Assembly (NCBI GenBank): GCA_021158185.1
Contig: JAGGVC010000104.1
Span: forward strand, 8,992-72,991
Reading direction: 5' to 3'
Length of the DNA: 64,000 bases
Origin: a bacterium
Lineage (GTDB): Bacteria > 4484-113 > JAGGVC01
Both the position numbers and the translations under genes were made by a program. Shown here piece after piece: positions 2,977 to 35,165 of this stretch; the stretch's first letter is position 1, and each line of letters opens with the position of its first letter. Below the pieces are notes generated by a model that did not search any database, was not told the origin of the DNA, and saw only the letters and a program-made list of their open reading frames with translations.

Positions 2977-2994
2977 TTGTTTGGAGGATCTGTA

Positions 2995-7085: not shown

Positions 7086-7158
7086 GTAAACAGCACTTTC
7101 CTGAGTAGCGGCTTGTTCATTGAGCAAGTGATTAACTCCTGAAGCGTTGAACAATGAG

Positions 7159-11196: not shown

Positions 11197-11363
11197 GTGA
11201 TTGCTACGAAGCGCTGTTGGTCGCGAATGCTCCGTGATAAAACCGCAGTGTGCTCGATAAGTTAATTTGCACATGTTCGTTTCTATAAGGGGTATAATTA
11301 ATCGTGGGAACTCGCAAATTTACTGTGGTCATTATTACATTGTGTTCTTCAGAATCGAATAAT

Positions 11364-16797: not shown

Positions 16798-16895
16798 TTT
16801 CCCAAGTGTGCCTTCTCGGCTGCACAAATCAGCAGAATTCTTCGCTTCAGAAATGTGTGTCTCTTGTTAAGATGATCTGAGCGGACAACTGGGAG

Positions 16896-17606: not shown

Positions 17607-17622
17607 GTTCTGGAAAAGAGGC

Positions 17623-18540: not shown

Positions 18541-18592
18541 TTCAAATGCCTCCTGACGGCTGGGATAAAACCGTGCGTAATCCTACTAGGAA

Positions 18593-19360
18593 TTATTTTT
18601 CAAGAACTTCTCGTGTGAGGTCCATGTAGGCCTTTGCACCTGCGCTTGACGGCGCGTATTCCACGATTGGAAGTCCATAACTCGGTGCTTCGGCCATCTT
18701 AACCGAACGCGGAACGACGGTTGAAAAAAGCAAATCAGGGAAGTGATTTGCAAGATCGTTTGTGACTTCGCGTGAGAGTTTCGTGCGGGAATCGAACATC
18801 GTGGCCAAAACACCGCATACTTTTAGATACGGGTTGTCGCCTTTCTGGACCGCTCGTACGATGTTGAGCAGGCGAGCAAGGCCCGAAAGGCTTAGAAACT
18901 CGCATTGTACCGGTATGATCACTTCATCCGCAGCAACAAGGCAGTTCAGCGTCAAAAGGCCAAGCGAAGGAGGTGTGTCGATTATCACGAACTCGGCATC
19001 GGTGCTCGAAGCGTTCATTGATACTCTAAGGCGGCTTTCGCGGTCCTCGAAGGATACAAGTTCGATTTCGATCCCGACGAGGTGCTTTGTGCCGCGAACG
19101 ATGGAAAGACCAGGGAATTGGGTGGGAATTGCTACATCCTCAAGCTTGGCGGAATCGGAAAACAGCCGGTAGCATGTATCCATGAACGGATCTGAGATGT
19201 CGGACTCGAAAAAGCCGAGAGCGGTGGATGCGTTTGCCTGCGGGTCGCAGTCTATAACGATGCTTTTGTGTCCAAGCTGCGCCAGGCCTGCTGCAAGATT
19301 GACGGCAGACGTGGTTTTGCCGACTCCTCCTTTCTGATTGGCTAAAGCGATGACGCGCAC
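18593..19360 (-). CDS. parA: Chromosome partitioning ATPase ParA/Soj.
   Basis: Deviant Walker A KGGVGKTT near the N-terminus, and ParA family sequence throughout. Confidence 0.9.
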   Translation of the reverse strand: MRVIALANQKGGVGKTTSAVNLAAGLAQLGHKSIVIDCDPQANASTALGFFESDISDPFMDTCYRLFSDSAKLEDVAIPTQFPGLSIVRGTKHLVGIEIELVSFEDRESRLRVSMNASSTDAEFVIIDTPPSLGLLTLNCLVAADEVIIPVQCEFLSLSGLARLLNIVRAVQKGDNPYLKVCGVLATMFDSRTKLSREVTNDLANHFPDLLFSTVVPRSVKMAEAPSYGLPIVEYAPSSAGAKAYMDLTREVLEK

Positions 19361-19403
19361 GGTCGGGATTATACCATCAGGTGTTTTTGGGATGATGAAA
19401 CCA

Positions 19404-20063
19404 TTAGCTGTTTTTGAGCAGATAAGCCAAGCCCTTGTTGCCGGTTGCTGTGCGGTAATCCAATTTTTTTTCGATACGATAATTATGCCTGGATGATTCT
19501 ATGCGTGAAGAGATGCCGGATCCGAATCCTGCGATGAAATGAGTTTCCGATCCTAGAAACGCTGATAATTCGATAACCCTTCCCAGTCTGGCAAATCCCC
19601 GGTGGCTGATCAAATGGTATCTCTCCGTATGTTCAGGAGGCGGCGTGCCCAAATGAACATTAACGACCGTTGCGTTGCCGATCTTCATTGCAGCGATGCA
19701 TTCGAGAAGATACGCAGAGCGGTTCCTGCCGGATTCAAACAGAGCGAAGCTCGCATTGGGTAATAGCGCTGCGAGAGCGAGGCCGGGAAATCCGTTGCCT
19801 GTTCCAAGATCGCATGCCTCACCTGAAAAATCGTCACCGACAAGCAGCGCAAGGATTGCAGCCTCCCATACATGCTTGGCGCAGATTTGATCAGGCTTGC
19901 AGTGGCTGGTCAGACCGAGAATCGGAGCATAGCGTACAAGCTCGTTAATGAGGATATTAATCTGTTTATCCGGCCATACCCCTTGCCACCCGAGTTGTTC
20001 CAGGGAGCGGCCAACTGAAACGCTGTTCTTCGGCGCATCAAAGTCGATGCTGATCGTTTCCAC
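19404..20063 (-). CDS. rsmG: 16S rRNA (guanine527-N7)-methyltransferase RsmG (GidB).
   Basis: DLGTGNGFPGLALAAL SAM motif, typical length, and position upstream of parAB. Confidence 0.85.
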   Translation of the reverse strand: METISIDFDAPKNSVSVGRSLEQLGWQGVWPDKQINILINELVRYAPILGLTSHCKPDQICAKHVWEAAILALLVGDDFSGEACDLGTGNGFPGLALAALLPNASFALFESGRNRSAYLLECIAAMKIGNATVVNVHLGTPPPEHTERYHLISHRGFARLGRVIELSAFLGSETHFIAGFGSGISSRIESSRHNYRIEKKLDYRTATGNKGLAYLLKNS

Positions 20064-20196
20064 GTTTCGATTTTACCAGTATCCGGGCTTTACCCTGCAC
20101 CGTGCGTCGTGTTGAGGAATCTATAGTGGTAATAATCGTTTTCTCGATGCATCACTTTTTGAATGAGTCACCGATAAGGTATAATTAAGTTTCAAT

Positions 20197-21171
20197 ATGG
20201 CGAAAGAGCAGAAAGCCGTTGTATCGCGCGATGTTGAGGATGCATCTGTTGATCTCGACCGCGTGATCGCTAGTGTGGAGAGCGTGATATTCGGCAAGAG
20301 ACGGGTAATCGAATACCTGCTGATTGCGTTACTTGCAGACGGACACGTTCTCATCGAGGATGTGCCGGGTGTCGGAAAGACGATGCTCGGCCGTGCTCTT
20401 GCTCGAAGCCTGGAGCTTGATTTCAAGCGCATTCAGTTCACGCCCGATCTCCTGCCTAGCGACTTGACCGGAAGCATGATTTTCAATCAGAAAAGCGGCG
20501 ATTTTTATTTCAAGCCTGGGCCGGTATTCGCGAGCGTTGTACTTGCCGACGAAATCAACCGTACCAGCCCCCGTACTCAGTCAGCGCTCCTTGAGGCGAT
20601 GGAAGAGCGCCAGGTTACGGTTGACGGCGTTCCTCACGAGCTTCAAGTTCCATTTTTCGTAATTGCGACGCAGAATTCAATCGAGCATCAGGGAACATAT
20701 CCGCTCCCAGAAGCGCAGCTTGACCGCTTTCTATTGAAAATCAGGGTCGGGTATCCGTCCGATTCGGAAGAAATCGCAATCCTGGAAAGCCAGCAGATTC
20801 GACATCCGATCGAAGATGTCCAATCGGTTATCAGTCCTGATCGGATAAGGAAACTTCGAGACTTGGTTCGCAACATTCATATAACGCCCTCGATTCGCAG
20901 GTACGTTGTGCGGATCGTAAATGAAACGCGCAGCCATCCCGATGTTCTTGTCGGTTGCAGTCCACGCGGTTCGTTGGGGCTTGCGCGCGCGTCGCAGGCA
21001 GCGGCCTTGATTGCTCGTCGAGATTACGTTGTTCCCGACGATGTTCAGGAGATGGCGCCCATCGTTCTCGGTCACAGGTTGTTCTTGCTTGCGGAATCGC
21101 AGCTTTCGGGCGTAAGTTCGCGGCGCGTAATTGATGACATCATCTCACGGTTACCGGTACCAACCGAGTAG
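20197..21171 (+). CDS. MoxR-family AAA+ ATPase.
   Basis: Walker A GVGKTML, MoxR-type Walker B LADEINR, and a sensor region. Confidence 0.9.
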   Translation: MAKEQKAVVSRDVEDASVDLDRVIASVESVIFGKRRVIEYLLIALLADGHVLIEDVPGVGKTMLGRALARSLELDFKRIQFTPDLLPSDLTGSMIFNQKSGDFYFKPGPVFASVVLADEINRTSPRTQSALLEAMEERQVTVDGVPHELQVPFFVIATQNSIEHQGTYPLPEAQLDRFLLKIRVGYPSDSEEIAILESQQIRHPIEDVQSVISPDRIRKLRDLVRNIHITPSIRRYVVRIVNETRSHPDVLVGCSPRGSLGLARASQAAALIARRDYVVPDDVQEMAPIVLGHRLFLLAESQLSGVSSRRVIDDIISRLPVPTE

Positions 21172-22599
21172 GTGAGGAGCGTGTTCAGTCCCGCCTTCAT
21201 TATCCTCTTTGTGCTCGACCTTCTTTTTCTCGCATTTGCCTTGATAAAAGCGGAACCCGTTCTGATGACCTACTCAATCATTGCGCTTTTCCTCTTGATA
21301 ATATGGGCGTTCATCTGGAGATTTCTCTCGATTCGCCTGGGCATCCAGCGAATTATGCTCAGCAAAACTTCTATCGCCGTGATGCTCCTTGCGGCATTCA
21401 GCGCGACCGTGAGCATAATTTTTAGTACTCACTTGCTTGTCTTTACTGCGGTATTCATTTTCACAAGCATCGTGCTCATATTTATCTGGTCGCTCATATC
21501 AAGCATAGGGCTGACAATTAGGCGAGAACATCACAGGATCGCGCTCATAGGACAGCCTCTCGAAGTGAGCATTACACTTGTCAATAACAGCCGTTGGCCC
21601 CGTTTCACTGTTATCGGGTTTGATTATTTTCCGGCAGCAAGTCACGAAGCGGGATACCAGGAAATGTGTTTTGTGAGTGTGCGCGGAAAAAGCGAAGTCA
21701 GCCTGAAGTACGAGGCACTTCCTTCGCTCAGAGGGGATTGGCGGATCGGCCCGTTTTATTTCTGGGGGGGCGATCCCTTCGGCTTCTTCAAGCATGAGCG
21801 TCTCGTTGAAATTTATACAGAGCTTATTGTTGTCCCTGTTCCGTTCAGAATCCGAATGAATGCTCTTGATAGCATCAGCAGAAGGCCTAAGGACGAAGCC
21901 GCAACAATCTCGAAAGCTGGTGAATCCGTCGAGTTTCTTGGCGTCAGAGAGTATCGTGAAGGCGACAGTATGCGGAAAATCCACTGGATATCGAGCGCGC
22001 GCACAGGGGAGCTTATAACAAAGCAGTTCGAGCTTAACGTGGCTAGTACGCTATCGTTTCTTCTTGTAAATACACCTGAAATGAGCGTTGGTATGGAGCC
22101 TGAAAAAACGCCGCTCGAAGATTCGCTCAGAATCATTATCTCACTAGCCCAGGGTGCAATCCGAGCGGGATATGAAGCGAGCTTCACGGAGCTTGGCGGA
22201 GAGAAAGAGCGGGATGCTTGGAGTGGCACAGGCCGTCAATTCCTGTCTGATCTGTCGGTGCGTCTCGCGCGGATCGGCGAAGGTGCGGATGTGAAATTAT
22301 CCGAAGAACTCAGATGGATTGTAGAGCTTGTTCCAGAAGGAAGCAATCTCTTCCTCTTTGTATCTTCCTGTGATGAAGCGGATCAAAAGCTTTATTCTCA
22401 TCTAACGCAGCGATTCAGGCGGCTTGTGGTAGTCCACTTCGATCTTGGAAGCTACGAAACCGGTGAAAGCTCGATACCTGCACCTAGAACTGTAGGTTCA
22501 GGTAAGCACCTTGTTTACAGGATCGAATACGGCGATGACCTGAAGAGGGTGACTGAGCGGATTCTCAGGCAGCTTCAAAAGGAGGTAGCCCTTGCATAA
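21172..22599 (+). CDS. DUF58-domain protein with an N-terminal multi-transmembrane region.
   Basis: GTG start immediately after the moxR stop. An alternative GTG at 21181 has a GGAGG Shine-Dalgarno. About 130 aa of hydrophobic segments are followed by DUF58-like GESVEFLGVREYREGDSMRKIHW. Confidence 0.8.
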   Translation: MRSVFSPAFIILFVLDLLFLAFALIKAEPVLMTYSIIALFLLIIWAFIWRFLSIRLGIQRIMLSKTSIAVMLLAAFSATVSIIFSTHLLVFTAVFIFTSIVLIFIWSLISSIGLTIRREHHRIALIGQPLEVSITLVNNSRWPRFTVIGFDYFPAASHEAGYQEMCFVSVRGKSEVSLKYEALPSLRGDWRIGPFYFWGGDPFGFFKHERLVEIYTELIVVPVPFRIRMNALDSISRRPKDEAATISKAGESVEFLGVREYREGDSMRKIHWISSARTGELITKQFELNVASTLSFLLVNTPEMSVGMEPEKTPLEDSLRIIISLAQGAIRAGYEASFTELGGEKERDAWSGTGRQFLSDLSVRLARIGEGADVKLSEELRWIVELVPEGSNLFLFVSSCDEADQKLYSHLTQRFRRLVVVHFDLGSYETGESSIPAPRTVGSGKHLVYRIEYGDDLKRVTERILRQLQKEVALA

Positions 22600-25045
22600 A
22601 GGATCGAGCGAGTTTTTTCCAGCGGAGGTTTTCGCTCGCATTCGAGGGGTACCTGGCCGTAAGTGGCTATATGTTTTTACTGCGATCGCAACGGTAATCG
22701 GCGTCCAGCTTCTTTATCTCACGAACGACGATTTTAATCTTAATGCCGGCTTGAGCGTTGCAGTGATCATCGGTTTTGTCTTCAGCTATTATCTCAACGC
22801 GGCCTATCAGAGATTTATGATTGTTGTTCTCGATATCGTTGCCATATCGATTTTCATTTTCTATATCACAAAAGTCGCTTCAAATCCCGTTACCTGGGGT
22901 AATGAGCTGGGGATTCTTCTTGGTCTTCTGATATCGATTTATAGTTTTCGCGCATACACGGAACGAGACCACAGGATGATCCTTGCATCGTGTCTCGTGA
23001 TAATGCTGCTTGCGAGCGTCGCGAGCTACGACGTGAAGTTGATGTTCGTTCTTCCTTTGTTCGTATTCTGCGGATTTGCAAGTCTTTATGTAGCGAATAA
23101 TCTTAGTTTATCGGACAGAATCCCGTATCTCGCGAGCGAAGTGGGAGCCGGTAGCGCCATTGTGTATCTTGCCGGACGCGCCACGATTGCAGTGCTTGTA
23201 GTGAGCATTCTGTTCTACATGTTAGTTCCTCACAGCGCAACCGTGAGGAATCCACGATTCAGGCTTCCCACAAGCACAATTATTACAGGGGATGATGAAG
23301 AAGATATCCCGCTCGAAGAACGTGAACAGATTACTGAACAAAGCAGCATAAGCGGATTCAGTGACGAGTTCGACCTGAAAGGGGGAAGAATCGAACTGGA
23401 GGATGAGCCTGTACTGCTCGTCAGAAGCACGTTGAACGATTATCTTCGAGGCAAGGTTTTCGACGTATATAACGGGAAAGGCTGGTCGCAATCGGAACTT
23501 TCGAAGGAAAAGAACAGGCCGGTGTTTTCTGAAGATGTTCTCGGCACACTTAAAAAGAAGTTTCCAGAATCCTCGATTATGGGCAATGTTCAAGTTTTAC
23601 CGCTTGTGGATTTCCCGTCGAGAAAGCTTGAGGAGAAGTTTCTAAAGGACAAGCTGATTTTTGTCGCGAAGGACAACACGTATTCAACTCAGGGAATGGA
23701 TGATAATCCTGATCTTAAGTATTCCATTCACCCGCTTGAAATCACGTTCCTGAAAAACGATGTCGCAATTTTCTTTTCACCTTATCAACCTTACAGGATC
23801 GAAGATGTAACTGGAAGGAATCCGTCCACCAGCACGGAGCGTTACGCCGATCCGGTTGTTGATTCCTTCAGCGTGATTAACGCATATAGAAGCGGAAGAC
23901 GGATGAGCTACTTCCCCAAGGGCATTCATTACAAGTTTTTCGTCCTGAAACCTTCCATCATTCCGATAAAGCTCAAGGAAGCTCCAAACAATTATCCTGC
24001 TGGATTACTTGAGCATTACACACAGCTTCCTCCGACAATCGACAGAAACAATCCGAACGATGCCCTTGCCAGGTTCGCCATCACGGTTGCAAACGGTGGC
24101 ACCGAGGATGCGGGACTTATCCCCTACGAGAAGGTGCTCAATATTTACGACCACTTCGTTAATTCGGGTGAATACGAGTATTCCCTGGAATATCCTGAGC
24201 TTCCCACCAAGAAGATCATGCGGGTTGACCCCGAAAGCGGAGAAACGTACGAAGAAGAGGTTGCGAAGGTTGACGCTGCATATCATTTTGTTTTTGTAAC
24301 GAAGAAAGGATATTGCGAGTTCTTTGCCAATGCATTTGCGGTTTTCTGCCGGATTAACAGCATCCCATCGCGTATCGTCACAGGATTTGCGCCCGGCAGG
24401 TATGATTTCATGAAAAACGGCTATGTCGTGTCGACAAGAAATGCACATTCCTGGGTTGAAGTTTATTTCGACGGGTTCGGCTGGGTATCGTTCGACCCGA
24501 CACCCGCGTCATCCGACTTTCTGAGTGCAAGCGAGATCAGGAGCTTTTTCAGTCAGACGTTCGATTATATCCAGAATCTCTTTGTTATCGACCCGCAGGG
24601 AGTGCAGCGCGTAACGGTCAGATTCTTTGCGACTCTCAGCCGAAGGGTATACGAAGTTGCAGTCGAAAACAGCGTAACAAGTACGCTGATCCTTGCAGTT
24701 CTTTCCGGCTTTTTGATCTTCAGCATCTGGCGTCGAAGACCCAGGAGGGAGCCGCCGCATATTCCGAAGAACGCGGTTGTCGCTTCGTATTACGGTCTGG
24801 AGAGCGCTCTTGCGGAAAACGGTTACATGCGGCCGGAGCATATGACGGGTAAGGCGTTCTTAAGAGGAGTAGCGTCTTCGGTAAACGAGCTCTCGTCCGT
24901 CCTTAATGAAATCGCAAATACATACTATGTGTATGCATACAGTTTGAAGGAGCCTGACGCGCGCGATGCCGAACGCGCGCGCGCGATTTTAACCGTTGTT
25001 CGCGAGTATTTTGCAAAGCGGGAAAAACGTGATGGAAGATCATAG
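22592..25045 (+). CDS. Transglutaminase-like (TGc) domain membrane protein. It is the third member of the MoxR, DUF58, TGase triad.
   Basis: Its start overlaps the DUF58 gene's stop by 8 nt. It has N-terminal transmembrane helices, the TGase core CEFFANAFAVFCR...HSWVEVYFDGFGWVSFDPT (Cys-His-Asp triad context), and a C-terminal transmembrane helix. Confidence 0.8.
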   Translation: MHKGSSEFFPAEVFARIRGVPGRKWLYVFTAIATVIGVQLLYLTNDDFNLNAGLSVAVIIGFVFSYYLNAAYQRFMIVVLDIVAISIFIFYITKVASNPVTWGNELGILLGLLISIYSFRAYTERDHRMILASCLVIMLLASVASYDVKLMFVLPLFVFCGFASLYVANNLSLSDRIPYLASEVGAGSAIVYLAGRATIAVLVVSILFYMLVPHSATVRNPRFRLPTSTIITGDDEEDIPLEEREQITEQSSISGFSDEFDLKGGRIELEDEPVLLVRSTLNDYLRGKVFDVYNGKGWSQSELSKEKNRPVFSEDVLGTLKKKFPESSIMGNVQVLPLVDFPSRKLEEKFLKDKLIFVAKDNTYSTQGMDDNPDLKYSIHPLEITFLKNDVAIFFSPYQPYRIEDVTGRNPSTSTERYADPVVDSFSVINAYRSGRRMSYFPKGIHYKFFVLKPSIIPIKLKEAPNNYPAGLLEHYTQLPPTIDRNNPNDALARFAITVANGGTEDAGLIPYEKVLNIYDHFVNSGEYEYSLEYPELPTKKIMRVDPESGETYEEEVAKVDAAYHFVFVTKKGYCEFFANAFAVFCRINSIPSRIVTGFAPGRYDFMKNGYVVSTRNAHSWVEVYFDGFGWVSFDPTPASSDFLSASEIRSFFSQTFDYIQNLFVIDPQGVQRVTVRFFATLSRRVYEVAVENSVTSTLILAVLSGFLIFSIWRRRPRREPPHIPKNAVVASYYGLESALAENGYMRPEHMTGKAFLRGVASSVNELSSVLNEIANTYYVYAYSLKEPDARDAERARAILTVVREYFAKREKRDGRS

Positions 25046-25772
25046 ACTGCTTATTATTAATGCCGATGACTTTGGACGAACACCTGAGATTTCGAAAGGA
25101 GTACTCGAATGCGCTGCAACCGGAATCGTCAGAAGCTCGACAATTATGTCCAATTTCGTTTCGGAGAGCGATATCAGTGCGCTTGCCGATTCAGACCTTT
25201 CCGCAGGGCTTCACTTCAATCTGACGAGCGGCAGTCCGATTGCTTTGTGGCCGAAAGATCTTATCGGTAAAAACGGGTATTTCAAGAAGGATATCGCTTC
25301 AGATTTACCGCGTGAACTCATCGAAGATGAGATTTATGCACAGTGGGATTATCTTGTATCGAGGGGAATTCGTCCGACACACATTGACAGCCACCATCAT
25401 GTACATGCCTTTGCAACTGTTTTTGCCGTTGTCGCGGAATTTGCGCTTAGACGCGGCGTATCCGTAAGACCTTGCAACAAAGATGTCGCAATGCTGCTTG
25501 TACATTTGGGCATAACGGCACCTGCAGAATTTTCGGATAGCTTCTTCGGCCTCGAAAATCTGTCAAAAGAGGGTTTCCTAAAGATTCTTGACGCTTGCAG
25601 TTCTGACTCGCTCGAAATAATGTGCCACCCGGGATATTCATCGCGCGAACTGGCTCTTTCAAGCACGTACGCGGAGGAACGCGAGGCTGAGCTTGGGATT
25701 CTCAGTGATTCCAGCCTTCTGTCCGAGATCGAAGACCGCGGATGGCGGATCGGGACATATCTCGATCTTTAA
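25032..25772 (+). CDS. YdjC/ChbG/HpnK-family carbohydrate deacetylase.
   Basis: LIINADDFG (family signature) and HIDSHHHVH. The start was chosen at MEDHRLL; the track ORF starts at 24996. Confidence 0.75.
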   Translation: MEDHRLLIINADDFGRTPEISKGVLECAATGIVRSSTIMSNFVSESDISALADSDLSAGLHFNLTSGSPIALWPKDLIGKNGYFKKDIASDLPRELIEDEIYAQWDYLVSRGIRPTHIDSHHHVHAFATVFAVVAEFALRRGVSVRPCNKDVAMLLVHLGITAPAEFSDSFFGLENLSKEGFLKILDACSSDSLEIMCHPGYSSRELALSSTYAEEREAELGILSDSSLLSEIEDRGWRIGTYLDL

Positions 25773-25865
25773 TTACGCAATATGGATACCTGGAAGCTCT
25801 AGTGGATAATCCGTGCGGCGTAGTCAACGGACGCTTTCGATTCGTGAGGGTATAATCTAATCGTT

Positions 25866-28800
25866 TTGAAGATGCAAGGGCTTATGTACAGAAGCAAGGG
25901 AAGCATATCGGCTCCAGCGGTTCGCGTCTGCATAGTCGTTGTCGCTTTCGTGCTTGCAGTTGGCGTTGTCGGTTCCTGTCGTGCAGGTAAACCGGTTTCA
26001 TCTGCCAGTTTCCCAGGATCCGAATCTGCTCCCGACAAGCCAAGCGGTGACAGCGAAAGCTATATCGTTAACGATTCCTTCGGGCTTGCATTGCTGGATC
26101 GCTACGATAAAGCACTTTCGCATCCCGATCGAGTTGTCTCGCTTGATAAACTCGATAAAGAAGACAGCGCTTTACTGACAATTACCTCAAAGGCCGGTCG
26201 GCTTCCGGACGATCTATTTATGGCTGTTAATTATGATTCCAGCCAATGGAGTTTCAAAGGTGCATCCTATGGCGGAGCAATGGGCGATAATGCGATTCAC
26301 ATAGAGTGCATTGCCTCATCAGGCGTTCTGAACCTCGGCGTTGCCCGGATGAAGGACGAGCGGGGGGTGAAGAACGGCGATGGAGCCGAGGCGGACAGAG
26401 TAATCTACACTCTTTTGTTTGCCAAGGGTGCCGAATCGGCGATGCGGGCGGTATGTAGCGCGCCGGTTGAAGAGCACAACAAAGTTGTCGATCTATCAGG
26501 GGAAGACCTGGGCAACAATACTGTTCGGCTGACGTGGACGGAAATCAATATCGGCGATTACGACAACAGTGGCGAAGTCGGCGTGCCGGATATCACTCCC
26601 ATCGCCGTTCATTTCCTTGAAACTCCTGCAACAGCCGATAATCCTGAACTGTTCATTCTGATTGACGGTGACAACAGCGATGAAATCGGCATATCCGACA
26701 TAACTCCCATCGCCAACAATTACCTGAATCTCATTTCGGGCTACCTTGTTTTCAGGGATGATCTGGGCGACGAGCCGATTGCACCGGGCAGTGAACTGCA
26801 GCCGACGATAGCGCGCCCGGAGCCGTCTCCAGATCATGGGCGGTTGCTATGTACGTTTTCAGACAGGCCGACCGCATCCGGAACGTATACCTACACTGTT
26901 AGACCTTTCAGTCTTCCTGATGATGAAGTACCTGTAGGTATTGAAAGCGATCCCGCCGCGGTCGAATTCACGGTGCATGGCATAGACGATGTAACGCCGC
27001 CAGTCTGGGACGACGATTCGGTAAAGTTGTCCGTAACCGGCGGAGAATCAAGCGTTTTTGTCGAATGGGGCAGGGCGGTCGACGCTGAAAGCTCGCCTGT
27101 AGATTATCTGATCTACGTATCCGAAGGCGATTCGGTTGAATACGAGACGCCTCACCGAACCATTGGAGCGGGAGATCCCGATCCTGACGAGCACTCGCTC
27201 GCTATCTCAGATCTGCCTTCCGGTACGAGATTCACGATAGCAGTCCGTGCGCGGGACAATGCGTTAAACCCGAATATTGATCAGAATACAGAGACGGTCA
27301 CGGTTGATCTCGTCAAGAACCTTGGCTGGCTCGACTTCAGGGGCGGCCCCGGAAGAACAGGCTCGATTCTGTCCACGCTCTATCCGCCGCTGACACTGTC
27401 ATTTGAGTTTTCGAAAGATCCTCCGGGAACCTGGTTCGTATCAACGCCTTCTATCGTCGGAAGCGATCTTGCTTCGCCTGATATCGCCGTTTGCGCGATA
27501 GACGAGGTTGTTTTTGCACTCGATATTTCCGATCCAGACAACATTCAGGAAATATGGACCTATCCCACGGGCGATCTCATTGACGGAAGCCCGACTGTCG
27601 CGGCGGACCGCGTGTTCGTCGGAAGCCGCGATCACAATTTCTACTGCCTGGATCTTGCAGATGGGGCTTTTATCTGGTCGTTCCCTATAACGGGAAATTG
27701 CGCGACCAGTCCGGCCGTTGTGGATGACGTTGTTTTCTTCGGCACAACGAGCGGCGATTTGTACGGTTTGTCCATCTTCGACGGAGAAGCGGTTCACGCG
27801 CACAGTGTGGATGCGACGATGTCTAGCAGTCCAGCGGTGGTTGACGGATATGTTTATGGTGGAAGCGGGAACAGCCCGTCTGTTCCTGCCAAGATTATCT
27901 GCTACGACACAGTTTTGAAGACGAGGAAATGGGAGTATCCGACAGATGCGGGCGTGTTCGGAACTCCTGCCGTTGCTGACGATCTTGTAATGGTTGGCGA
28001 CTTGGCAGGGAACTTGTATATTCTCTCGACTTCCGGAGCTGAACTTTACAAGATTCCATTGGGCGCAGGGATAAACGCGAGCCCTGCATACGGCGATGGC
28101 ATCGTGTACGCTGCGACACTCGACAGCAAAGTCTATGCAATTAACACGGCGACCGGCGAGGAAATATGGCCTGCACCTGCGACAATCCCGGGTGCTGCAG
28201 GGATTTTCTCAAGCCCGCTCTTGACAGGGAATTACCTTTATGTTGCCGGAAGCAACGGGCATCTTTACGCACTTGAAGCTGCAACAGGCGAAATCGTATG
28301 GGAGTGGGGAGGTTCATCTATACCGGTTACATCGAGCCCTGTAACTTGGGGCGGGCAAATCTTTCTTCAGGGCGGCGACAACACGCTACGAGCTTTTATT
28401 TCCAACAGCGATTACATACCTCCAGCGTGGACATCGCACATCGGTATATATTCCGCTTCATGGACAGGAGAGATAGGAAATCCTTTTCTCAGGCTTATAG
28501 CGGGTGATGCAACTGAATCGAAAACGCCGCCTGTCAAATGGATGTTCTATATGAGTCGCGCTGATGAAGTTGATTTCATCGATGCCGATCTTCCAAGTTC
28601 ACAAACAATAACACTCGGCCCAGTACTCGCGCCGGATTACACGCTGAATCCGGCCGGTATGGCGATCGCGCGCGCACAGTGGAACGCGCATCGCGCGTGG
28701 TACGCCGCGCGCGTGCTCGACAGCGCGATCCCCGCCAATTACGATTCAAACGAAGAAATAATCGACTACACATTTCCATGGTATGGCTTCGAGCGTGGAA

Positions 28801-29990
28801 TTGACACCGATGATGGTGAGACGATTTACCAGTTCGACGCCGCATACGATTCGGACCGTGATTCGTTTCTGATTGCAGCATACAATTACATTGAGGACGG
28901 TGCAATCTGGAAGCTGAATCAGTACGAGATCGGAACAGCTGTCTCGCAGGAATTTGAGCTGATGCCACTGACTGAAAAGGCGAGTGCGGGATATGTCGAT
29001 CTGGCAAAGGCTCCGGGTGAATCGGGAGCGTTTTTCATGGCTACAGCCGTACCGATTTCAGGGGATCCGGTTCGGCGCGAGCTTCATGTCGGCTCGACCG
29101 CTAATGCCGGAAGCGATTTTTCATTCGAGAAAATCGATCCGAGCGACCATAACTGGGGCGAAGTTGCAATAGCTATCGACGATAGAGGGCTTCCTGCCGT
29201 CGCCAATACTTATATGGAAGACATTACGAGTGAACTGCTTTTCGCGACGTTCTGGCCGCAGTATCATTACCTCGATGATAACGATCCTCAAGCATGGCAC
29301 AGAGAATTCATCGATCTGTCGGGCGTTCAGACCTGGTACATCGACCTTGAATTCAAGACTGACGGCACGCCTGTGGTTGCATACAGCAAAAGCAACAAGA
29401 CAACGGGCGGTAATACGGGTCTTTTCGTGGCAGAGCGCAGGGGAGCTGACGACTGGGCTATTACCGAGGTCGAGGGCGGCGATCTGGCGGGTATCACGGG
29501 CAAACATCTTTCGATGGCGCTCGATGAAAACGACAGGCCGGTTATTGTTTTTTCAGACCTCGTTTCAGAACTTGTGAATCTAGCCTTGCCGACGGGTGAT
29601 GGAACATGGGATATCGTTGAGCTTGGGAGCATAAACAGCCAGGGCCGGACGATTCACCACGGAACAGACATCCTTAGGAATGTAACGGACGGGCAGGAAG
29701 GTTACACGTATGCGCTTGCACATTTCTCGCAGGTCGGCACGAGCGATACGCTTCAGAATGTTTTCGTCCGAGGTTTCAGAAAGGTCGATGGAAGTTGGTT
29801 TGTGCCGGATAACAACGACTACTGGATTGGCGAAGTCGAGCAGCCTATGAGCGACAGCGGGAATATTGTACTTGTCGAGCATGATGACGCCGCGCTGCCA
29901 AACGGAGCCGTTTTATTTGCGCTGTGCCTGGACGAATGGGGGCAGACACTCCTGATAAACAGCGTTGAATCCGAGAATTTTCTCAGGTAG
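25866..29990 (+). CDS. Giant predicted lipoprotein of 1374 aa. Its order is: signal/lipobox, N-terminal region, dockerin-like double Ca-binding loop module, fibronectin type III domain, PQQ/BamB-type beta-propeller, and a roughly 540-aa C-terminal region of unknown function.
   Basis: Signal peptide ending in VGSC. The dockerin-like repeats are IGDYDNSGEVGVPDITPIAVHFL and DGDNSDEIGISDITPIANNYL, of the EF-hand-like DxDxxGxVxxxD type. The FN3-like segment is TPPVWDDDSVKLSVTGGESSVFVEWG. The repeated beta-propeller blades are VFVGSRDHNFYCLDLADGAFIW, VVFFGTTSGDLYGLSIFDGE, YLYVAGSNGHLYALEAATGEIVW. Confidence 0.75.
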   Translation: MKMQGLMYRSKGSISAPAVRVCIVVVAFVLAVGVVGSCRAGKPVSSASFPGSESAPDKPSGDSESYIVNDSFGLALLDRYDKALSHPDRVVSLDKLDKEDSALLTITSKAGRLPDDLFMAVNYDSSQWSFKGASYGGAMGDNAIHIECIASSGVLNLGVARMKDERGVKNGDGAEADRVIYTLLFAKGAESAMRAVCSAPVEEHNKVVDLSGEDLGNNTVRLTWTEINIGDYDNSGEVGVPDITPIAVHFLETPATADNPELFILIDGDNSDEIGISDITPIANNYLNLISGYLVFRDDLGDEPIAPGSELQPTIARPEPSPDHGRLLCTFSDRPTASGTYTYTVRPFSLPDDEVPVGIESDPAAVEFTVHGIDDVTPPVWDDDSVKLSVTGGESSVFVEWGRAVDAESSPVDYLIYVSEGDSVEYETPHRTIGAGDPDPDEHSLAISDLPSGTRFTIAVRARDNALNPNIDQNTETVTVDLVKNLGWLDFRGGPGRTGSILSTLYPPLTLSFEFSKDPPGTWFVSTPSIVGSDLASPDIAVCAIDEVVFALDISDPDNIQEIWTYPTGDLIDGSPTVAADRVFVGSRDHNFYCLDLADGAFIWSFPITGNCATSPAVVDDVVFFGTTSGDLYGLSIFDGEAVHAHSVDATMSSSPAVVDGYVYGGSGNSPSVPAKIICYDTVLKTRKWEYPTDAGVFGTPAVADDLVMVGDLAGNLYILSTSGAELYKIPLGAGINASPAYGDGIVYAATLDSKVYAINTATGEEIWPAPATIPGAAGIFSSPLLTGNYLYVAGSNGHLYALEAATGEIVWEWGGSSIPVTSSPVTWGGQIFLQGGDNTLRAFISNSDYIPPAWTSHIGIYSASWTGEIGNPFLRLIAGDATESKTPPVKWMFYMSRADEVDFIDADLPSSQTITLGPVLAPDYTLNPAGMAIARAQWNAHRAWYAARVLDSAIPANYDSNEEIIDYTFPWYGFERGIDTDDGETIYQFDAAYDSDRDSFLIAAYNYIEDGAIWKLNQYEIGTAVSQEFELMPLTEKASAGYVDLAKAPGESGAFFMATAVPISGDPVRRELHVGSTANAGSDFSFEKIDPSDHNWGEVAIAIDDRGLPAVANTYMEDITSELLFATFWPQYHYLDDNDPQAWHREFIDLSGVQTWYIDLEFKTDGTPVVAYSKSNKTTGGNTGLFVAERRGADDWAITEVEGGDLAGITGKHLSMALDENDRPVIVFSDLVSELVNLALPTGDGTWDIVELGSINSQGRTIHHGTDILRNVTDGQEGYTYALAHFSQVGTSDTLQNVFVRGFRKVDGSWFVPDNNDYWIGEVEQPMSDSGNIVLVEHDDAALPNGAVLFALCLDEWGQTLLINSVESENFLR

Positions 29991-30084
29991 GATTTGCCGG
30001 GTGATACAGTCTGTAACGTGAAGTCAGAAGTTGAATCGAGTCGGTACGCTATAGGGTTGTTGCTTAGGGCTCGCGAAGGAGGGG

Positions 30085-32679
30085 ATGGTGCGTAATCATC
30101 ATCATTGTGTTCTGATAATAGGAATTGCCGTGCTGCTTTTAACGGCCTGCGGTCGCGAGAGCATCACCGATGTTACAGCGAAAAAAGATCCGCTCACTTC
30201 TTCTATCGAGATCGTTTCGTTTAACGATGCCGAACCGCACAAATACGACCTGGAAATACTTGATGATGCCGATTCGGTAAGCGTGCGCATTTCATCGGCG
30301 ATTCCCGTTGAATCCGGGCATCTTCTGCATATCACATTCCCCGCGGATAGACTTACTCCCGAAAGCGTTGATTTTGCACCTGAGCTTTTGGGTAGCGATG
30401 TAATCCGCCTTGCAGTTACGAGCAAGCCTGGGATTATCGCAATCGGCGCTGTTCCGATAGGCGATGAACCGCTTTCATCAGGCGAAGTCGCGACGATTAC
30501 CTTCGACAGGCATCCCTCTGTTATCCGCGTGACGGGCAAGGCACCTGTTGGCAATGAAAATCGAGTGACAGACCTTGGCGTGGAAGTGCTCGATTCAACA
30601 AATGTACGATTGACTTGGCATGGTCGGCTTATCGGCGATTACGACACAAAAGGAGATGTCGGTGTTCCCGATATCACTCCGATAGCCATAAACTACCTTG
30701 CAATTCCTGGCGACGGAGAGGGCGACGACACCTGGGAAGCGATTATCGACGGGGATAAAAGCGACGAGGTCGGAGTATCGGATATTTCGATAATCGCCCA
30801 GCATTATCTCGAAATGCTTGCCGGATACCACGTGTATGTTGGTGTTCCGGATGATCCCGGCAATCCTGATACAAGTGTTTCATGGTCGGAAACTCCGCTG
30901 GATATGGGAGCCGAAGGCGATGATCCTTGTCTTGTTCCATACAGCGGTGAAAGACACGAGAGCTACGGGTTCTACTGGTTTGAAGAAACCGTAACGGTTG
31001 ATCCATCGGTTCTCCTGGACTCAAGCGCCTGGATGGTTGTGCCGACCGACGGGGAATCCGAAGGGATCGAAAGCGTTCCGGCAATTCTCGTTTCCGGTGC
31101 AGATACGACTCCGCCTTCCTGGCAGGGCGGGATCAGCATTGTTTCCGCGGAGCCTGGCGACGGGCAGGTAACCGTAACCTGGGGAATGGCTGAAGATGTG
31201 GAAAATCCGCCGGTTGGATACCGTGTTTACTATGCTTTGCGCGATGAATTCAGTTTTGAAACAGCCGACACAGATGGTCCGTTTGATGAAACGACTCATT
31301 CAGCCGTCGTGGACGACCTGACGAATGACTTTGCCTATACGTTTGCCGTGCGTGCTACCGACAGTGCGCCTGAGCCTAACGAGGATCGGAACACTAACAC
31401 GATCGATGCAACGCCATCCGCTTCATCCGGAATCATTGCAGATGTCCCTCCAACGGGGTCGAGTCAAATCGGGACGGACGATGTCGTAAACGCCGATATA
31501 GCGCTCGCGCCGGGGGCTGGCAGTCCGAATCCTCTATATGAAAACGGCGCGCCGTTTGTCGTCTACCGTGATACGGAGAATGCACTCGTTCTAGCGTATT
31601 ACCTTGATGGATGGCAGATGCAGGATATCGTGAGTGATGCAGGCTCGATCGGGCCGCATAAAGCGGCTGTTATCTGCGGGAATATCGTCGTTGCGATTCC
31701 GAGCCGCGCCCAGAATTCCATTGACGTTATCTGGGGGCAGCCGGGCGGAAGCTTCGAATCCGCGACCGTAAGCGACGCGCTCGCGGAATCGCCCTCATTC
31801 GTGGATATAGGCTATTCAGAAACTGCTGGCCAGATGATGATTGCCTACGCGTTCGATTCAGACAGCTCTGATGCTGAAATTGAGTTTGTGTTCGCCGATT
31901 ACGCAGGCGGATCGATTGCAGACCTTGTTTGGACTACTGAATCTGTAGATTCCGCTCCCACGGTAGCAGGTCTCGATATGGTCGTCGATGGTGTGCAGCC
32001 ATATATCGCATTCAGCGCAGGCCTGACCGATATTGAGAACATGCAGTTCGATACATCGCTTTTCATCGCGGCGCGCAACGGCGCGGACGACTGGCAGGTT
32101 GATGATCTCTCTGCGCAGATCGGAAACTCGATGCCGCTTCTCGTAAGCGCAGGTATTGTTGACGGCGATCTTGAAATCATTTACCAGAGCGTAACTATTT
32201 TCACGATTCCGATTCTTAACTACGATGTTCCGATATTCCACCTCAAGGCATACCGCGGTGGTTCATCGCCGATAGACGCGGTCGTTTACGAAGGAACGAT
32301 CAGCTTCAACATATTTACGCAGACGGCTGATATTGATTATGCGCTCGAACCGCTATTGGTACCTTTGCCGCCCTCGTCAGGGAAGGACGCTTTCGTCGGA
32401 TTATCAGCCTGCACGGGCGAAATCGCACTCTCGAATTACCCCGACCTTTCAGGAACAATCGATCTGCTGCTTTACGGCGCGACTCAGACAGGATCGAGCA
32501 TAACAGACACTGCAGGATTCGGGCTGGGCATCGGGCGCGATATTTCCGGAGTGTATAACGAATCAGGCGGCTACATTGCAGTATCCAAGATTCAGACCGA
32601 ACAGATGAATATTGACGATATGGGCGATTTGTCCAATCTTCCTGCGGGGCCGCTTTATTACCGTACGATCGATCCGTAA
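30085..32679 (+). CDS. Paralogous large lipoprotein of 864 aa: lipobox, the same dockerin-like module plus an FN3 domain, then a roughly 430-aa C-terminal region of unknown function.
   Basis: GGAGGGG Shine-Dalgarno. Lipobox LLTAC. IGDYDTKGDVGVPDITPIAINYL and DGDKSDEVGVSDISIIAQHYL are collinear with the upstream paralogue, as is the FN3-like TTPPSWQGGISIVSAEPGDGQVTVTWG. The paralogy is visible at nucleotide level (atcggcgattacgaca shared). Confidence 0.75.
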   Translation: MVRNHHHCVLIIGIAVLLLTACGRESITDVTAKKDPLTSSIEIVSFNDAEPHKYDLEILDDADSVSVRISSAIPVESGHLLHITFPADRLTPESVDFAPELLGSDVIRLAVTSKPGIIAIGAVPIGDEPLSSGEVATITFDRHPSVIRVTGKAPVGNENRVTDLGVEVLDSTNVRLTWHGRLIGDYDTKGDVGVPDITPIAINYLAIPGDGEGDDTWEAIIDGDKSDEVGVSDISIIAQHYLEMLAGYHVYVGVPDDPGNPDTSVSWSETPLDMGAEGDDPCLVPYSGERHESYGFYWFEETVTVDPSVLLDSSAWMVVPTDGESEGIESVPAILVSGADTTPPSWQGGISIVSAEPGDGQVTVTWGMAEDVENPPVGYRVYYALRDEFSFETADTDGPFDETTHSAVVDDLTNDFAYTFAVRATDSAPEPNEDRNTNTIDATPSASSGIIADVPPTGSSQIGTDDVVNADIALAPGAGSPNPLYENGAPFVVYRDTENALVLAYYLDGWQMQDIVSDAGSIGPHKAAVICGNIVVAIPSRAQNSIDVIWGQPGGSFESATVSDALAESPSFVDIGYSETAGQMMIAYAFDSDSSDAEIEFVFADYAGGSIADLVWTTESVDSAPTVAGLDMVVDGVQPYIAFSAGLTDIENMQFDTSLFIAARNGADDWQVDDLSAQIGNSMPLLVSAGIVDGDLEIIYQSVTIFTIPILNYDVPIFHLKAYRGGSSPIDAVVYEGTISFNIFTQTADIDYALEPLLVPLPPSSGKDAFVGLSACTGEIALSNYPDLSGTIDLLLYGATQTGSSITDTAGFGLGIGRDISGVYNESGGYIAVSKIQTEQMNIDDMGDLSNLPAGPLYYRTIDP

Positions 32680-32862: not shown

Positions 32863-34176
32863 ATGGATAGCTTTGTTAAAATGGTTGAGCGCCGTGAGTT
32901 GAAGATAGGTGTAATTGGACTCGGATATGTTGGATTGCCTCTCGCCATGGAATTTGCATCGGCAGGATTCGATGTGGTCGGGTTCGAAATAAGTGAAAGT
33001 AAAATTGAGCGGATCAATCGCGGTGAAAACTACATAAAGGATGTTGATAACGACAAACTTGCGAGGTTCGTTGAAAGCGGCAAACTTACTGCCACATCCG
33101 ATTTTTCAAGAATTACCGATTGCAATGCGATAAGCGTATGTGTACCGACTCCGCTTTCGAAAATGCAGGAGCCGGACATAAGCTACATCCTTTCCGCGAC
33201 TAGCGAGATTGCGAAGTATTTGAGCCCCGGAACACTCGTAGTCCTCGAAAGTACGACATATCCGGGCACAACCGATGAAATTTTATTACCCGCGCTTTCG
33301 CAGAACGGACGTAAGGTTGGCGTTGATTTCTTTTTGGCTTTCAGTCCTGAGCGTGTGGATCCGGGTAATGACAAGTTCTTCACGCGCAATACTCCAAAAG
33401 TTATAGGGGGAGTGACGGAGGAATGCAGGAAGCGCGCGGTGTATCTTTACACGCAGGTTATTTCGGAGATCGTGCAGGTAAGCTCGACAACTGCGGCCGA
33501 GATGGTCAAGCTCGTCGAGAACACGTTTCGCGCGGTAAACATCGCCAGTGTCAACGAAATCGCCCTCATCTGCCATAAGCTGGGGCTTGACGTGTGGGAG
33601 ATAATTGACGCCGCTGCAACCAAGCCTTTCGGGTTCGTGCCGTTTTATCCGGGGCCGGGGCTTGGCGGTCACTGCATTCCGATTGATCCGCTATATCTTT
33701 CGTGGAAAATGAAATCGCTAGATTTCCACACTCAGTTCATTGAGCTTGCAAGCGAGATAAACCGCGGGATGCCTCTCTGGGTCGTCAGCCGCGTTGAAGG
33801 GCTTTTGAACAAGTGCTTGAAGAACATTACAGGCAGTACCATCCTCGTGCTCGGTGTAGCGTACAAGCGCAACATTGATGATGTGCGCGAATCACCCGCG
33901 CTAGAAGTGATCAAGCATTTGAGATCGCTCGGAGCGAATGTTTGCTATCACGATCCATATATTCCGTCTTGTATCATCGGTAAGTTCGAGAATGACGAAA
34001 CAGAGCTTTCGTCACAGGAACTTACTCAGGAACTCCTCAATAGCGCGGATGTTGTAGTATGCACGACCGATCATGACGATTTCGACTGGAGTTTTATTCT
34101 TGAGCATGCAAATCGCGTGTTTGACGCGCGAAACGCAACGAAGGGATTCGAGAGCGACAAAATCGAAAGACTGTGA
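32863..34176 (+). CDS. UDP-sugar 6-dehydrogenase family enzyme, closest by eye to the UDP-GlcNAc/UDP-ManNAc dehydrogenase type (TviB/WecC/WbpA).
   Basis: N-terminal Rossmann IGVIGLGYVGLP, a catalytic Cys in the GGHCIPID-like context, and about 437 aa. Confidence 0.85.
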   Translation: MDSFVKMVERRELKIGVIGLGYVGLPLAMEFASAGFDVVGFEISESKIERINRGENYIKDVDNDKLARFVESGKLTATSDFSRITDCNAISVCVPTPLSKMQEPDISYILSATSEIAKYLSPGTLVVLESTTYPGTTDEILLPALSQNGRKVGVDFFLAFSPERVDPGNDKFFTRNTPKVIGGVTEECRKRAVYLYTQVISEIVQVSSTTAAEMVKLVENTFRAVNIASVNEIALICHKLGLDVWEIIDAAATKPFGFVPFYPGPGLGGHCIPIDPLYLSWKMKSLDFHTQFIELASEINRGMPLWVVSRVEGLLNKCLKNITGSTILVLGVAYKRNIDDVRESPALEVIKHLRSLGANVCYHDPYIPSCIIGKFENDETELSSQELTQELLNSADVVVCTTDHDDFDWSFILEHANRVFDARNATKGFESDKIERL

Positions 34177-34220
34177 TGGCAGCAGTTCGTCATTGACTTA
34201 TTGTCTCAGGGGAACGTGAT

Positions 34221-35165
34221 ATGGCGCATTATCTTGTAACAGGCGGCGCAGGATTCATAGGAAGCAACATTGTTGAGGAGTTGCTTCGTCTAGGCGAAAA
34301 AGTGCGTGTACTCGATGATTTTTCGACCGGTCGCCGCGAGAACCTCGCAGGCCTTTCGGGATTCGAGCTTGTCGAAGGCTCGATAACCGATGAGGCAACG
34401 TGCAGATCCGCTTGTGACGGGATCGATTTTGTGCTTCATCAGGCAGCACTGCCGTCCGTACCGCGGAGCGTCAAAGATCCAGTCGCCAGCAACAAAGTAA
34501 ACGTGGATGGAACCGTTAATCTGCTATGGGCGGCAAAAAATGCAGATGTACAGCGTTTCGTTTTCGCGGCATCCTCAAGTGCGTACGGCGATACGCCGAC
34601 TCTGCCCAAGCATGAAGGTATGACTCCGAATCCGCTTTCACCGTACGCGGTTTCCAAGCTTGCGGGGGAGAATTACTGCAGGGCGTTTTATGCTTGTTAC
34701 GGGCTTGAAACCGTTGTATTGCGCTATTTCAACATATACGGGCCAAGGCAGGATCCCGAAAGCCAGTATGGAGCGGTGATTCCCATCTTTTGCCGCGATA
34801 TAATCAAAGGCAATTCACCTCCGATTTTCGGTGACGGCGAGCAGACGCGCGATTTTACGTTCGTGTTGGACGCGGTGCAGGCAAACCTGAAGGCATGTAC
34901 TGCGCCACCGGAATGTTCGGGAAGAACGATGAACATCGGTGCAGGCGCTCAGACGAGCATAATTTCGCTTTTCAGAAAGCTGCGCAGCCTTCTGAATCGT
35001 ACAGAGATCGAGCCGGTATTCGAAGCACCCAGGGAAGGCGATGTTCGCGACAGTTTTGCCACAATTGAGTTGGCGCGCGATCTGATCGGGTACGAGCCGC
35101 GTTATAACATTGACAGCGGACTTGAGCTTGCGATTGAATACTACATCGAGGCTTGCTCTGAATAA
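34221..35165 (+). CDS. NAD-dependent nucleotide-sugar 4-epimerase of the extended SDR family (TviC/WbpP-like UDP-GlcNAc(A) 4-epimerase).
   Basis: VTGGAGFIGSN, the catalytic YxxxK (YAVSKLAGE), and family-wide similarity. Confidence 0.85.
   Translation: MAHYLVTGGAGFIGSNIVEELLRLGEKVRVLDDFSTGRRENLAGLSGFELVEGSITDEATCRSACDGIDFVLHQAALPSVPRSVKDPVASNKVNVDGTVNLLWAAKNADVQRFVFAASSSAYGDTPTLPKHEGMTPNPLSPYAVSKLAGENYCRAFYACYGLETVVLRYFNIYGPRQDPESQYGAVIPIFCRDIIKGNSPPIFGDGEQTRDFTFVLDAVQANLKACTAPPECSGRTMNIGAGAQTSIISLFRKLRSLLNRTEIEPVFEAPREGDVRDSFATIELARDLIGYEPRYNIDSGLELAIEYYIEACSE

Follow-up and report, generated by a model that had tools for sequence, protein, structure and literature searches.

Tandem predicted lipoproteins with a divergent dockerin inserted in a fibronectin type III domain, members of a large family and of a candidate non-cellulolytic cohesin-dockerin system

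Pairing of cohesin with dockerin is a textbook bacterial route to extracellular multi-protein machines and is heavily used in synthetic biology. In the type II X-module-dockerin dyads of scaffoldins, an immunoglobulin (Ig)-like beta-sandwich is coupled to the dockerin, presumably stabilising it. For uncultured aquatic (freshwater) Planctomycetes, the 'planctosome' hypothesis envisages a cellulosome-like, non-cellulolytic cohesin-dockerin assembly with peptidases, modelled on Pfam-detectable, separate cohesin and dockerin domains and a lamin-tail-anchored scaffold (Andrei et al., ISME J 2019, PMC6461901). Here we describe two adjacent genes, W1 and W2, in a 64,000-nucleotide (nt) stretch of the bacterial contig JAGGVC010000104.1 (positions 8,992 to 72,991), hereafter the window. 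Each encodes a predicted lipoprotein in which a candidate cohesin-fold domain (N-domain) is followed by a fibronectin type III (FN3) domain with a dockerin inserted in it, a unit referred to below as the FN3::dockerin module. W1 and W2 belong to a large family of envelope proteins with a predicted N-terminal lipid anchor, in which they form a conserved, syntenic pair, and we propose, with about as much doubt as conviction, that this family constitutes a lipoprotein-anchored, non-cellulolytic cohesin-dockerin assembly system. The parts (cohesin, dockerin, FN3, propellers) are ordinary; what is unusual is their combination and the size of the family.

An original prediction, made from the window sequence alone, had called the two genes a tandem pair of paralogous lipoproteins. 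The genes and their predicted anchors are as follows.

25884..29990, + strand: W1 gene, encoding a lipoprotein of 1368 amino acids (aa) (open reading frame (ORF) list, translation and public gene calls, ATG at 25884)
25884..25979, + strand: W1 signal peptide and lipobox (…VVGS-C32), from the sequence and from alignment of its Cys to the lipobox Cys in family members
30085..32679, + strand: W2 gene, encoding an 864-aa lipoprotein (ORF list, translation)
30085..30150, + strand: W2 signal peptide and lipobox (LLTA-C22), from the sequence

The lipoboxes, VGSC (C32) in W1 and LTAC (C22) in W2, follow a hydrophobic h-region and fit the signal peptidase II pattern, the assignment being a match to [LVI][ASTVIG][GAS]C only. 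The W1 start is ambiguous: TTG 25866 (ORF 25866..29990, 1374 aa), ATG 25872 or ATG 25884, the last being that of the public gene calls. A protein identical to W2 is present on public contigs. BLASTP aligned W1 and W2 collinearly over 410 aa at 34% identity (E 5e-43), with a second match between W1 aa 835-969 and the W2 FN3 (E 5e-7) and an additional short match at the C-terminus. By these alignments the paralogy is real and not low-complexity. The tandem pair of lipoproteins stands, and we take W1 and W2 to be ancient paralogues. The 94-nt gap between them contains no convincing terminator; a TATAAT-like hexamer lies upstream of W1 (25850-25855) and a GGAGG Shine-Dalgarno sequence immediately 5' of W2. 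A promoter and terminator scan gave no signal exceeding shuffled expectation. Co-transcription of the pair is plausible from this arrangement.

The dockerin and the FN3 domain that carries it were located in both proteins.

26460..26969, + strand: W1 dockerin-carrying FN3 (aa about 193-362; 149.7 bits with the module hidden Markov model (HMM); collinear with W2 by BLASTP)
26553..26726, + strand: dockerin insert of W1 with two Ca loops of the F-hand type, DYDNSGEVGVPD and DGDNSDEIGISD, and a helix after each (sequence, loop conservation, hhalign)
30541..31104, + strand: W2 dockerin-carrying FN3 (aa about 153-340)
30634..30819, + strand: W2 dockerin insert (aa 184-245), DYDTKGDVGVPD plus helix, linker helix, DGDKSDEVGVSD plus helix

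The Ca-loop motifs from which a dockerin-type element had been predicted occur verbatim as GDYDNSGEVGVPDITPIAVHFL and DGDNSDEIGISDITPIANNYL in W1 and as GDYDTKGDVGVPDITPIAINYL and DGDKSDEVGVSDISIIAQHYL in W2. Both proteins thus contain two tandem 12-residue Ca2+ loops with Asp in positions 1, 3 and 12, each with a helix, and a conserved I-T-P-I-A-x-N-Y-L stretch follows each loop and is helical in the W2 model. That model, an AlphaFold2 prediction of W2 aa 36-345 from a 36-sequence alignment (mean predicted local distance difference test (pLDDT) 90.3), runs past the N-domain through two beta-strands, three helices (aa 194-202, 215-221 and 231-239) and five further strands. The strands make up the seven-strand sandwich of an FN3 domain (PF00041), and the dockerin occupies its B-C loop, interrupting strands B and C. 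Located about 100-190 aa from the lipoprotein N-terminus, the insert is not a free-standing terminal dockerin. Across 191 family segments, loop 1 is conserved at D1 (100%), D/N/S3 (96%), N/S/D5 (95%), G6 (92%), V/I8 (92%) and D12 (100%), and loop 2 at the same positions 1, 3, 5, 6, 8 and 12 at 94%, 92%, 93%, 83%, 93% and 95%. The two dockerin halves are near-identical in sequence and in this resemble dual-binding-mode dockerins.

Homology to dockerins was established through relatives and profiles, because W1 and W2 themselves give no match to the Pfam model Dockerin_1 (PF00404). When 36 relatives were scanned singly, Dockerin_1 was the commonest Pfam family, matching 7 of them (best E 5.6e-6), followed by Cohesin in 5 members and EF-hand_1 in 3. 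The family insert profile aligned with two solved dockerins (4fl4/4dh2) at 96.6% hhalign probability (E 5e-10, 61 columns, both repeats). A nine-sequence module profile searched against the PDB ranked the dockerins 4fl4, 4dh2, 2ccl and 4u3s top with both repeats aligned, at E values of only 0.055-0.84, and placed calmodulin and centrin below them. As judged from these sequence comparisons, the double Ca-loop element, which the original prediction had called dockerin-like, is a true but divergent dockerin; that it lies within an FN3 domain had not been foreseen. FG-GAP, thrombospondin-type-3 and generic EF-hand readings of the loops were rejected in view of the helix after each loop, the dockerin three-helix order and the rank of dockerins as best profile matches.

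Directly ahead of this element lies the candidate cohesin-fold domain.

26073..26483, + strand: W1 cohesin-fold N-domain (aa about 64-200)
30196..30564, + strand: W2 cohesin-fold N-domain (aa 38-160)

The original prediction had noted a conserved domain before the Ca loops and had held that the window contains no cohesin partner. The domain is indeed conserved in both proteins; it can now be assigned a fold, and with it the second statement is not supported, as W1 and W2 both carry a candidate partner fold themselves. The best Foldseek match of the modelled W2 N-terminal cassette was a cohesin-FN3 construct of Clostridium perfringens GH84C (2w1n, E 3e-6), and the N-domain shows the beta-sandwich fold of cohesins. 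Pfam Cohesin (PF00963) weakly matched two of 16 N-domains (best E 0.0016) and five of 36 cassettes (best E 0.0089), and no other Pfam family matched more than one N-domain. Searching PDB sequences with an N-domain profile returned nothing. Because of the fold and these weak Pfam matches we class the domain as cohesin-like: in the predicted structure it is a shortened cohesin fold, for which the sequence support is weak but consistent. In the loci of metagenome-assembled genomes (MAGs), the domain is found in about 25 of 62 module ORFs, invariably immediately upstream of the module, and W1 and W2 as unique scaffoldins were rejected on account of this distribution. Members without it (e.g. P0004, at aa 75-125, P0026 and P0031) have a conserved helical segment before the module instead, with the consensus …I-x-E-I-E-x-Y-E-P-P-x-x-V-D-x-x-V-F-E-M-L-R-x-E-F-I-R-Q…, which might occupy that same dockerin surface or be a different adaptor.

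The N-terminal module is not confined to this pair. Neither Pfam nor NCBIfam has a model that matches W1 or W2 over the FN3::dockerin module, and W2 as a single query found eight relatives among 5.8 billion clusters, several of which share the module only, fused to Peptidase_C11 or to PKD domains and propellers. A module-profile HMM search of 1.84 billion cluster representatives (clusters at 50% identity) returned 2100 at E<=1e-3 and 1603 at E<=1e-10. The family was sized by this exhaustive search; a narrower homologue search with the module profile had given 15 short fragments only. Further paralogues, for which the original prediction had proposed a search without recognising the extent of the family, thus fill at least 1600 clusters, and single genomes carry dozens of copies. 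When species-representative genomes were scanned, W2 as the only query gave no locus; with a four-sequence module alignment the scan gave 44 loci, 42 of them from two MAGs, in which a six-frame HMM search of the loci counted at least 29 and at least 31 module genes. Often these genes stand in tandem, two or three together, and most of them have lipoboxes. In the 168 proteins retrieved, the median distance of the module start from the N-terminus is 106 aa, and a lipobox-like signal is present in 120 of them; in a 61-sequence alignment the lipobox Cys is at least 90% invariant. Within the window, module and N-domain occur only in W1 and W2.

A Pfam census of the payloads in 61 ORFs listed PKD (20), fn3 (10), Peptidase_S8 (3) and PQQ propellers (3), and further Ig, BACON, BNR_4, Peptidase_C11, M10, AhpC-TSA and cytochrome c domains. 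No glycoside hydrolase or carbohydrate-binding module (CBM) was among the top 25 of the 28 payload families of these 61 relatives, and the members and loci covered do not show the dockerin-bearing glycoside hydrolases or CBMs plus multi-cohesin scaffoldin of a cellulosome. Two FN3::dockerin modules are present in P0024, P0025, P0027, P0028 and about 20 others, close together in P0024 (93-193 and 262-361) and near each end in P0025 (144-237 and 999-1105). Elsewhere in the window, a 714-aa secreted-type subtilase (7159-9303, - strand; Peptidase_S8 plus PKD) is made of family-typical payload types without the module.

Beyond the module, W1 and W2 continue into the following domains.

26973..27302, + strand: W1 second FN3 (aa 364-473; Pfam fn3 19.9 bits, sub-threshold; jackhmmer FN3 profile 104 bits)
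27336..28373, + strand: W1 PQQ_2/BamB-type beta-propeller (aa about 485-830; Pfam PQQ_2, PDB BamB)
28359..28778, + strand: W1 third FN3-like domain (aa 826-965; BLASTP to the W2 FN3 at E 5e-7, jackhmmer)
28779..29987, + strand: W1 C-terminal BNR_4-like propeller with blades of about 50 aa (aa 966-1368; jackhmmer)
31084..31413, + strand: W2 second FN3 (aa 334-443; Pfam fn3 22.8 bits, sub-threshold; FN3 profile 118.5 bits; strands in the model)
31450..32676, + strand: W2 C-terminal beta-rich domain (aa 456-864)

The FN3 domains and the PQQ/BamB-like propeller of W1 had been foreseen, and both were borne out. The propeller scored 123.7 bits with PQQ_2 (PF13360; gathering threshold 27.6) and 137.5 bits with Beta-prop_ACSF4, and W1 aa 564-843 aligned to BamB structures in a PDB sequence search (E about 1e-16). 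As BamB proper or as a PQQ dehydrogenase it was rejected, its NCBIfam scores lying far under the cut-offs (104.9 bits against 285.2 for the BamB model TIGR03300, and 65 against 480 for the PQQ dehydrogenase model TIGR03075).

The large C-terminal regions had been described as free of known motifs. For the roughly 540 aa of W1 this no longer holds: jackhmmer ties aa 826-965 to the W1 FN3 at 364-473 and to the W2 FN3, and the remainder is a BNR_4-like propeller whose blades recur, by the same method, as multi-blade payloads across many family members. Those linked payloads reach 33-37 bits with Pfam BNR_4 (PF15892; gathering threshold 27.3), whereas W1 aa 956-1368 reaches 15 bits and is therefore BNR_4-like rather than a member; BLASTP of the W1 C-terminus against the P0008 propeller was not significant, and the link comes from jackhmmer alone. 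The description stands for W2, whose C-terminal domain matches no Pfam family and is limited to the orthologues P0002, P0003 and P0066 and an ORF of locus L003. AlphaFold2 gave strands at W2 aa 490-675 (pLDDT 70-87) and low confidence for the remainder; the model of whole W2 has a pLDDT of 58.8 (<40 at aa 676-864), and Foldseek with it returned generic FN3/Ig chains only. By hhalign, the C-terminus of W2 resembles that of W1 with 75% probability over one blade. Profiles of glycoside hydrolases, lyases, esterases and CBMs match neither W1 nor W2. The propellers of W1/W2 probably serve as platforms for binding, without catalytic activity.

The flanks of the pair include the glycan-modifying genes that had been predicted there, now confirmed by Pfam.

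24996..25772, + strand: YdjC-family gene, conserved upstream neighbour of W1 (Pfam YdjC 160.9 bits; also in L003 and L050)
32863..35165, + strand: UDP-glucose/GDP-mannose dehydrogenase and NAD-dependent epimerase, downstream of W2 and conserved there (Pfam; same order in L001, L003 and L051/L052)

The window reads parB-parA-gidB, then MoxR-DUF58-TgpA-YdjC, then W1-W2, followed by the UDP-sugar dehydrogenase, the epimerase, murB on the opposite strand, and then rpiB, recA, rny, uvrC, ligA, purA and others. Abutting W1 at 20197-25772 are the MoxR AAA+ ATPase, the DUF58 protein, the TgpA-type transglutaminase (817 aa) and YdjC, and the order TgpA-YdjC-W1 is retained in L003 and in the distant L050, which suggests that the transglutaminase module is linked to W1. 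The two genes are co-conserved, as the original prediction required: the W1-W2 pair is syntenic in four of five related genomes, beside UDP-sugar genes. In L003 (one MAG) the order is DUF58-TgpA-YdjC-W1-W2-(268-aa ORF)-dehydrogenase-murB; the 268-aa ORF (L003 11813-12619), without a Pfam match and absent from the window, lies between the W2 orthologue and the dehydrogenase. In L001 (MAG GCA_964602075.1) W1 is present as two ORFs, followed by W2 and the dehydrogenase. The split falls inside the PQQ propeller (5869-7974 and 8118-9956; stop-to-stop ORFs 5836-7971 and 7806-9953); the gene may truly be split there, or the break may stem from a frameshift or assembly error. In GCA_039961635.1 (L051/L052) the upstream genes differ, and W1-W2-dehydrogenase-epimerase is followed by Wzx, Wzy, two GT4 genes and murB. 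The stretch between epimerase and murB there (14934-21423) encodes the Wzx flippase, the Wzy polymerase, the two GT4 proteins and a 458-aa gene product; in the window murB comes directly after the epimerase.

A mobile element or horizontally acquired island was rejected, given the flat GC content across the window, the housekeeping neighbours (parAB, gidB, murB, recA, uvrC, ligA) and the conserved synteny. MutL of the window (14097-16058) has six relatives at 50-56% identity, after which identity drops to <=42%, suggesting a deep-branching, sparsely sampled, uncultured lineage; the 'Planctomycetia' labels of related MAG records may be unreliable. At 71-4584 an NfnB/GltD-like NAD(P)H Fe-S oxidoreductase, a 2Fe-2S/4Fe-4S ferredoxin-like protein and a glutamate-synthase-domain protein stand in a row, which together with a Rex-type repressor (16896-17606) is consistent with an anaerobic lifestyle. 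The window also has two 379-aa ORFs overlapping on opposite strands (10057-11196, +; 10135-11274, -), of which the + ORF has no Pfam match, and a 509-aa ORF without a Pfam match (52242-53771, -).

In the cohesin-dockerin assembly that we propose, the Ca2+-loaded dockerin insert would dock onto cohesin-fold domains, in trans on other family members or in cis. Dozens of lipoproteins (PKD/Ig binders, S8, C11 and M10 peptidases, propellers) would thereby be knitted into membrane-tethered assemblies, a non-cellulolytic counterpart of the cellulosome built from lipoproteins. Members with both partner folds, among them W1 and W2 and making up about 40% in the MAG loci, might act as adaptors or polymerise head-to-tail. 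We infer binding because both partner folds co-occur, because one module is placed on dozens of unrelated payloads per genome, and because the dockerin halves resemble those of dual-binding dockerins. Fixed as the pair is beside UDP-sugar, Wzx/Wzy and MurB genes, the context suggests a role for W1 and W2 at the envelope or the surface-polysaccharide layer.

Several observations weigh against this proposal. The excised 80-aa dockerin segments of W1 and W2 do not match Dockerin_1 even at E<=10, nor do the whole proteins, and neither W1 nor W2 matches Pfam Cohesin. The N-domain is short, at about 105-125 aa, of which 85-93 residues align with cohesins of about 140, and its mean column identity is 30% against 53% for the dockerin; it could be a plain spacer. 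About 60% of the family members in the MAG loci lack it, and the roughly 0.7 Mb of loci contain no multi-cohesin scaffoldin, every cohesin-fold match being single-copy. The near-invariance of the dockerin helices could come from packing on the FN3 and not from an interface with a partner. The most distant genome (L050) keeps TgpA, YdjC and a W1-like gene, beside which W2 is absent.

In an alternative reading, the cohesin-fold sandwich and FN3::dockerin would form a rigid, calcium-stabilised pedestal that keeps variable payload domains at a distance from the membrane and binds no partner, with W1 and W2 working independently through their propellers. The module is always found beside the lipid anchor, most members have a single copy of it, its dockerin helices are almost invariant family-wide, as expected of an intramolecular packing surface, and the poorly conserved cohesin-fold domain gives way to a helical linker in about 60% of members. 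We nevertheless regard such a stalk as rather unlikely: both folds of a known binding pair recur together in one family, the near-identical dockerin halves mirror dual-binding-mode dockerins, and the dozens of diverse payloads per genome on one module are like dockerin secretomes. A decidedly unlikely variant of the binding idea is a self-assembling, Ca2+-dependent lattice or chain of surface lipoproteins, modular, S-layer-like and without a dedicated scaffoldin, in which W1 and W2 would be a conserved core tied to the surface-polysaccharide layer; it is raised because about 40% of MAG-loci members carry the cohesin-fold domain and the dockerin together in a membrane-proximal position.

The position of the module just past the lipobox in most retrieved members, its identical type on unrelated cargo, and the conservation of W1-W2 beside surface-polysaccharide genes would suit a sorting or anchoring tag, recognised by lineage-specific machinery for flipping to the surface or fixing to wall or polysaccharide, comparable in function to Bacteroidota lipoprotein export signals or the C-terminal domains of the type IX secretion system (T9SS). 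Known tags, however, are short peptides or simple beta-sandwiches and not Ca-binding composites of about 190 aa, the five loci compared share no co-conserved candidate transporter, and two distant modules in one protein, as in P0025 (above), are odd for a sorting signal, so that we consider a tag very doubtful. The original prediction had suggested a cell-surface adhesion or polysaccharide-processing complex, the latter here taken as one of W1, W2, YdjC and the UDP-sugar enzymes. Propellers of the BNR_4 type often have to do with carbohydrates, W1-W2 adjoin the UDP-sugar dehydrogenase and epimerase in four genomes, one of which extends to Wzx, Wzy and two GT4 genes, and YdjC is adjacent in three. 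This complex is nonetheless highly improbable. The profile searches found no catalytic glycan-active domain in W1, W2 or the top 25 of 28 payload families. The matches of the pair itself include no glycoside hydrolase, lyase, esterase or CBM, and its PQQ-type propeller scores far under all enzyme-level models. Because the neighbourhoods of other family members are unrelated, the glycan context belongs to the W1-W2 pair alone and does not count as evidence of catalysis.

If the cohesin-dockerin proposal is true, the architecture is novel, combining a dockerin inserted in FN3, a mini-cohesin on the same chain and a lipid tether. It would provide a concrete parts list for testing the hypothetical planctosome, in which peptidases and adhesins are assembled by non-cellulolytic bacteria, and a structural precedent for a dockerin that tolerates loop insertion, useful for protein engineering. 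The lattice variant, if true, would be a third distinct deployment of cohesin and dockerin, after cellulosomes and the toxin complexes of C. perfringens, in a deep-branching lineage. Should the module be only a Ca-stabilised stalk, the finding shrinks to a new domain family meriting a Pfam entry. The family of at least 1600 clusters is large and unannotated, annotation pipelines labelling its proteins 'hypothetical'.

Compared with type I dockerins (PF00404; 4fl4, 4dh2, 2ccl and 1ohz chain B), the W1/W2 insert has the same duplicated 12-residue Ca2+ loop plus F-hand helix with Asp at position 12, the three-helix order, the strong internal two-fold symmetry and the placement of one module on many unrelated payloads per genome. 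It differs in lying in the FN3 B-C loop near the N-terminus of a lipoprotein, whereas cellulosomal dockerins are C-terminal on secreted enzymes, in falling under the Pfam reporting level, and in having no glycoside hydrolases or CBMs among the payloads seen. In the X-module dyads, too, a sandwich is coupled to the dockerin, but there the X module precedes it, while in W1/W2 it is the sandwich that is split, with the dockerin lying between its strands B and C. The N-domain was compared with cohesins (PF00963; 6kgc_A, 2vn5_A and 1ohz_A, and the non-cellulosomal Archaeoglobus cohesin 2xdh_A), from which it differs in being shorter and single-copy, always with a dockerin following it immediately on the same chain. 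C. perfringens GH84C/NagJ (2w1n), considered alongside the cohesin-dockerin pairs of the C. perfringens toxin complexes, likewise has a non-cellulosomal cohesin followed by an FN3; the FN3 of NagJ is without a dockerin and belongs to a secreted glycosidase, whereas that of W1/W2 hosts a dockerin in a lipoprotein without a catalytic domain. The W1 propeller resembles BamB and other PQQ_2 propellers, being over the PQQ_2 threshold at aa about 485-830 with about 280 residues aligning to BamB structures, and differs from BamB in being an internal domain of a 1368-aa protein.

The planctosome comes near in host labels, three of four module-bearing MAGs being labelled Planctomycetia or Planctomycetales; unlike in that model, the W1/W2 family is lipobox-anchored, embeds its dockerin in FN3 and is largely invisible to Pfam. 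A full-text literature search of incomplete coverage found no published description of a W1/W2-type architecture. Five traits set the family apart from these known modules: the lipid anchor, the FN3-inserted dockerin, the N-terminal position of the module, the mini-cohesin on the same chain, and the fact that existing profile libraries miss most of it.

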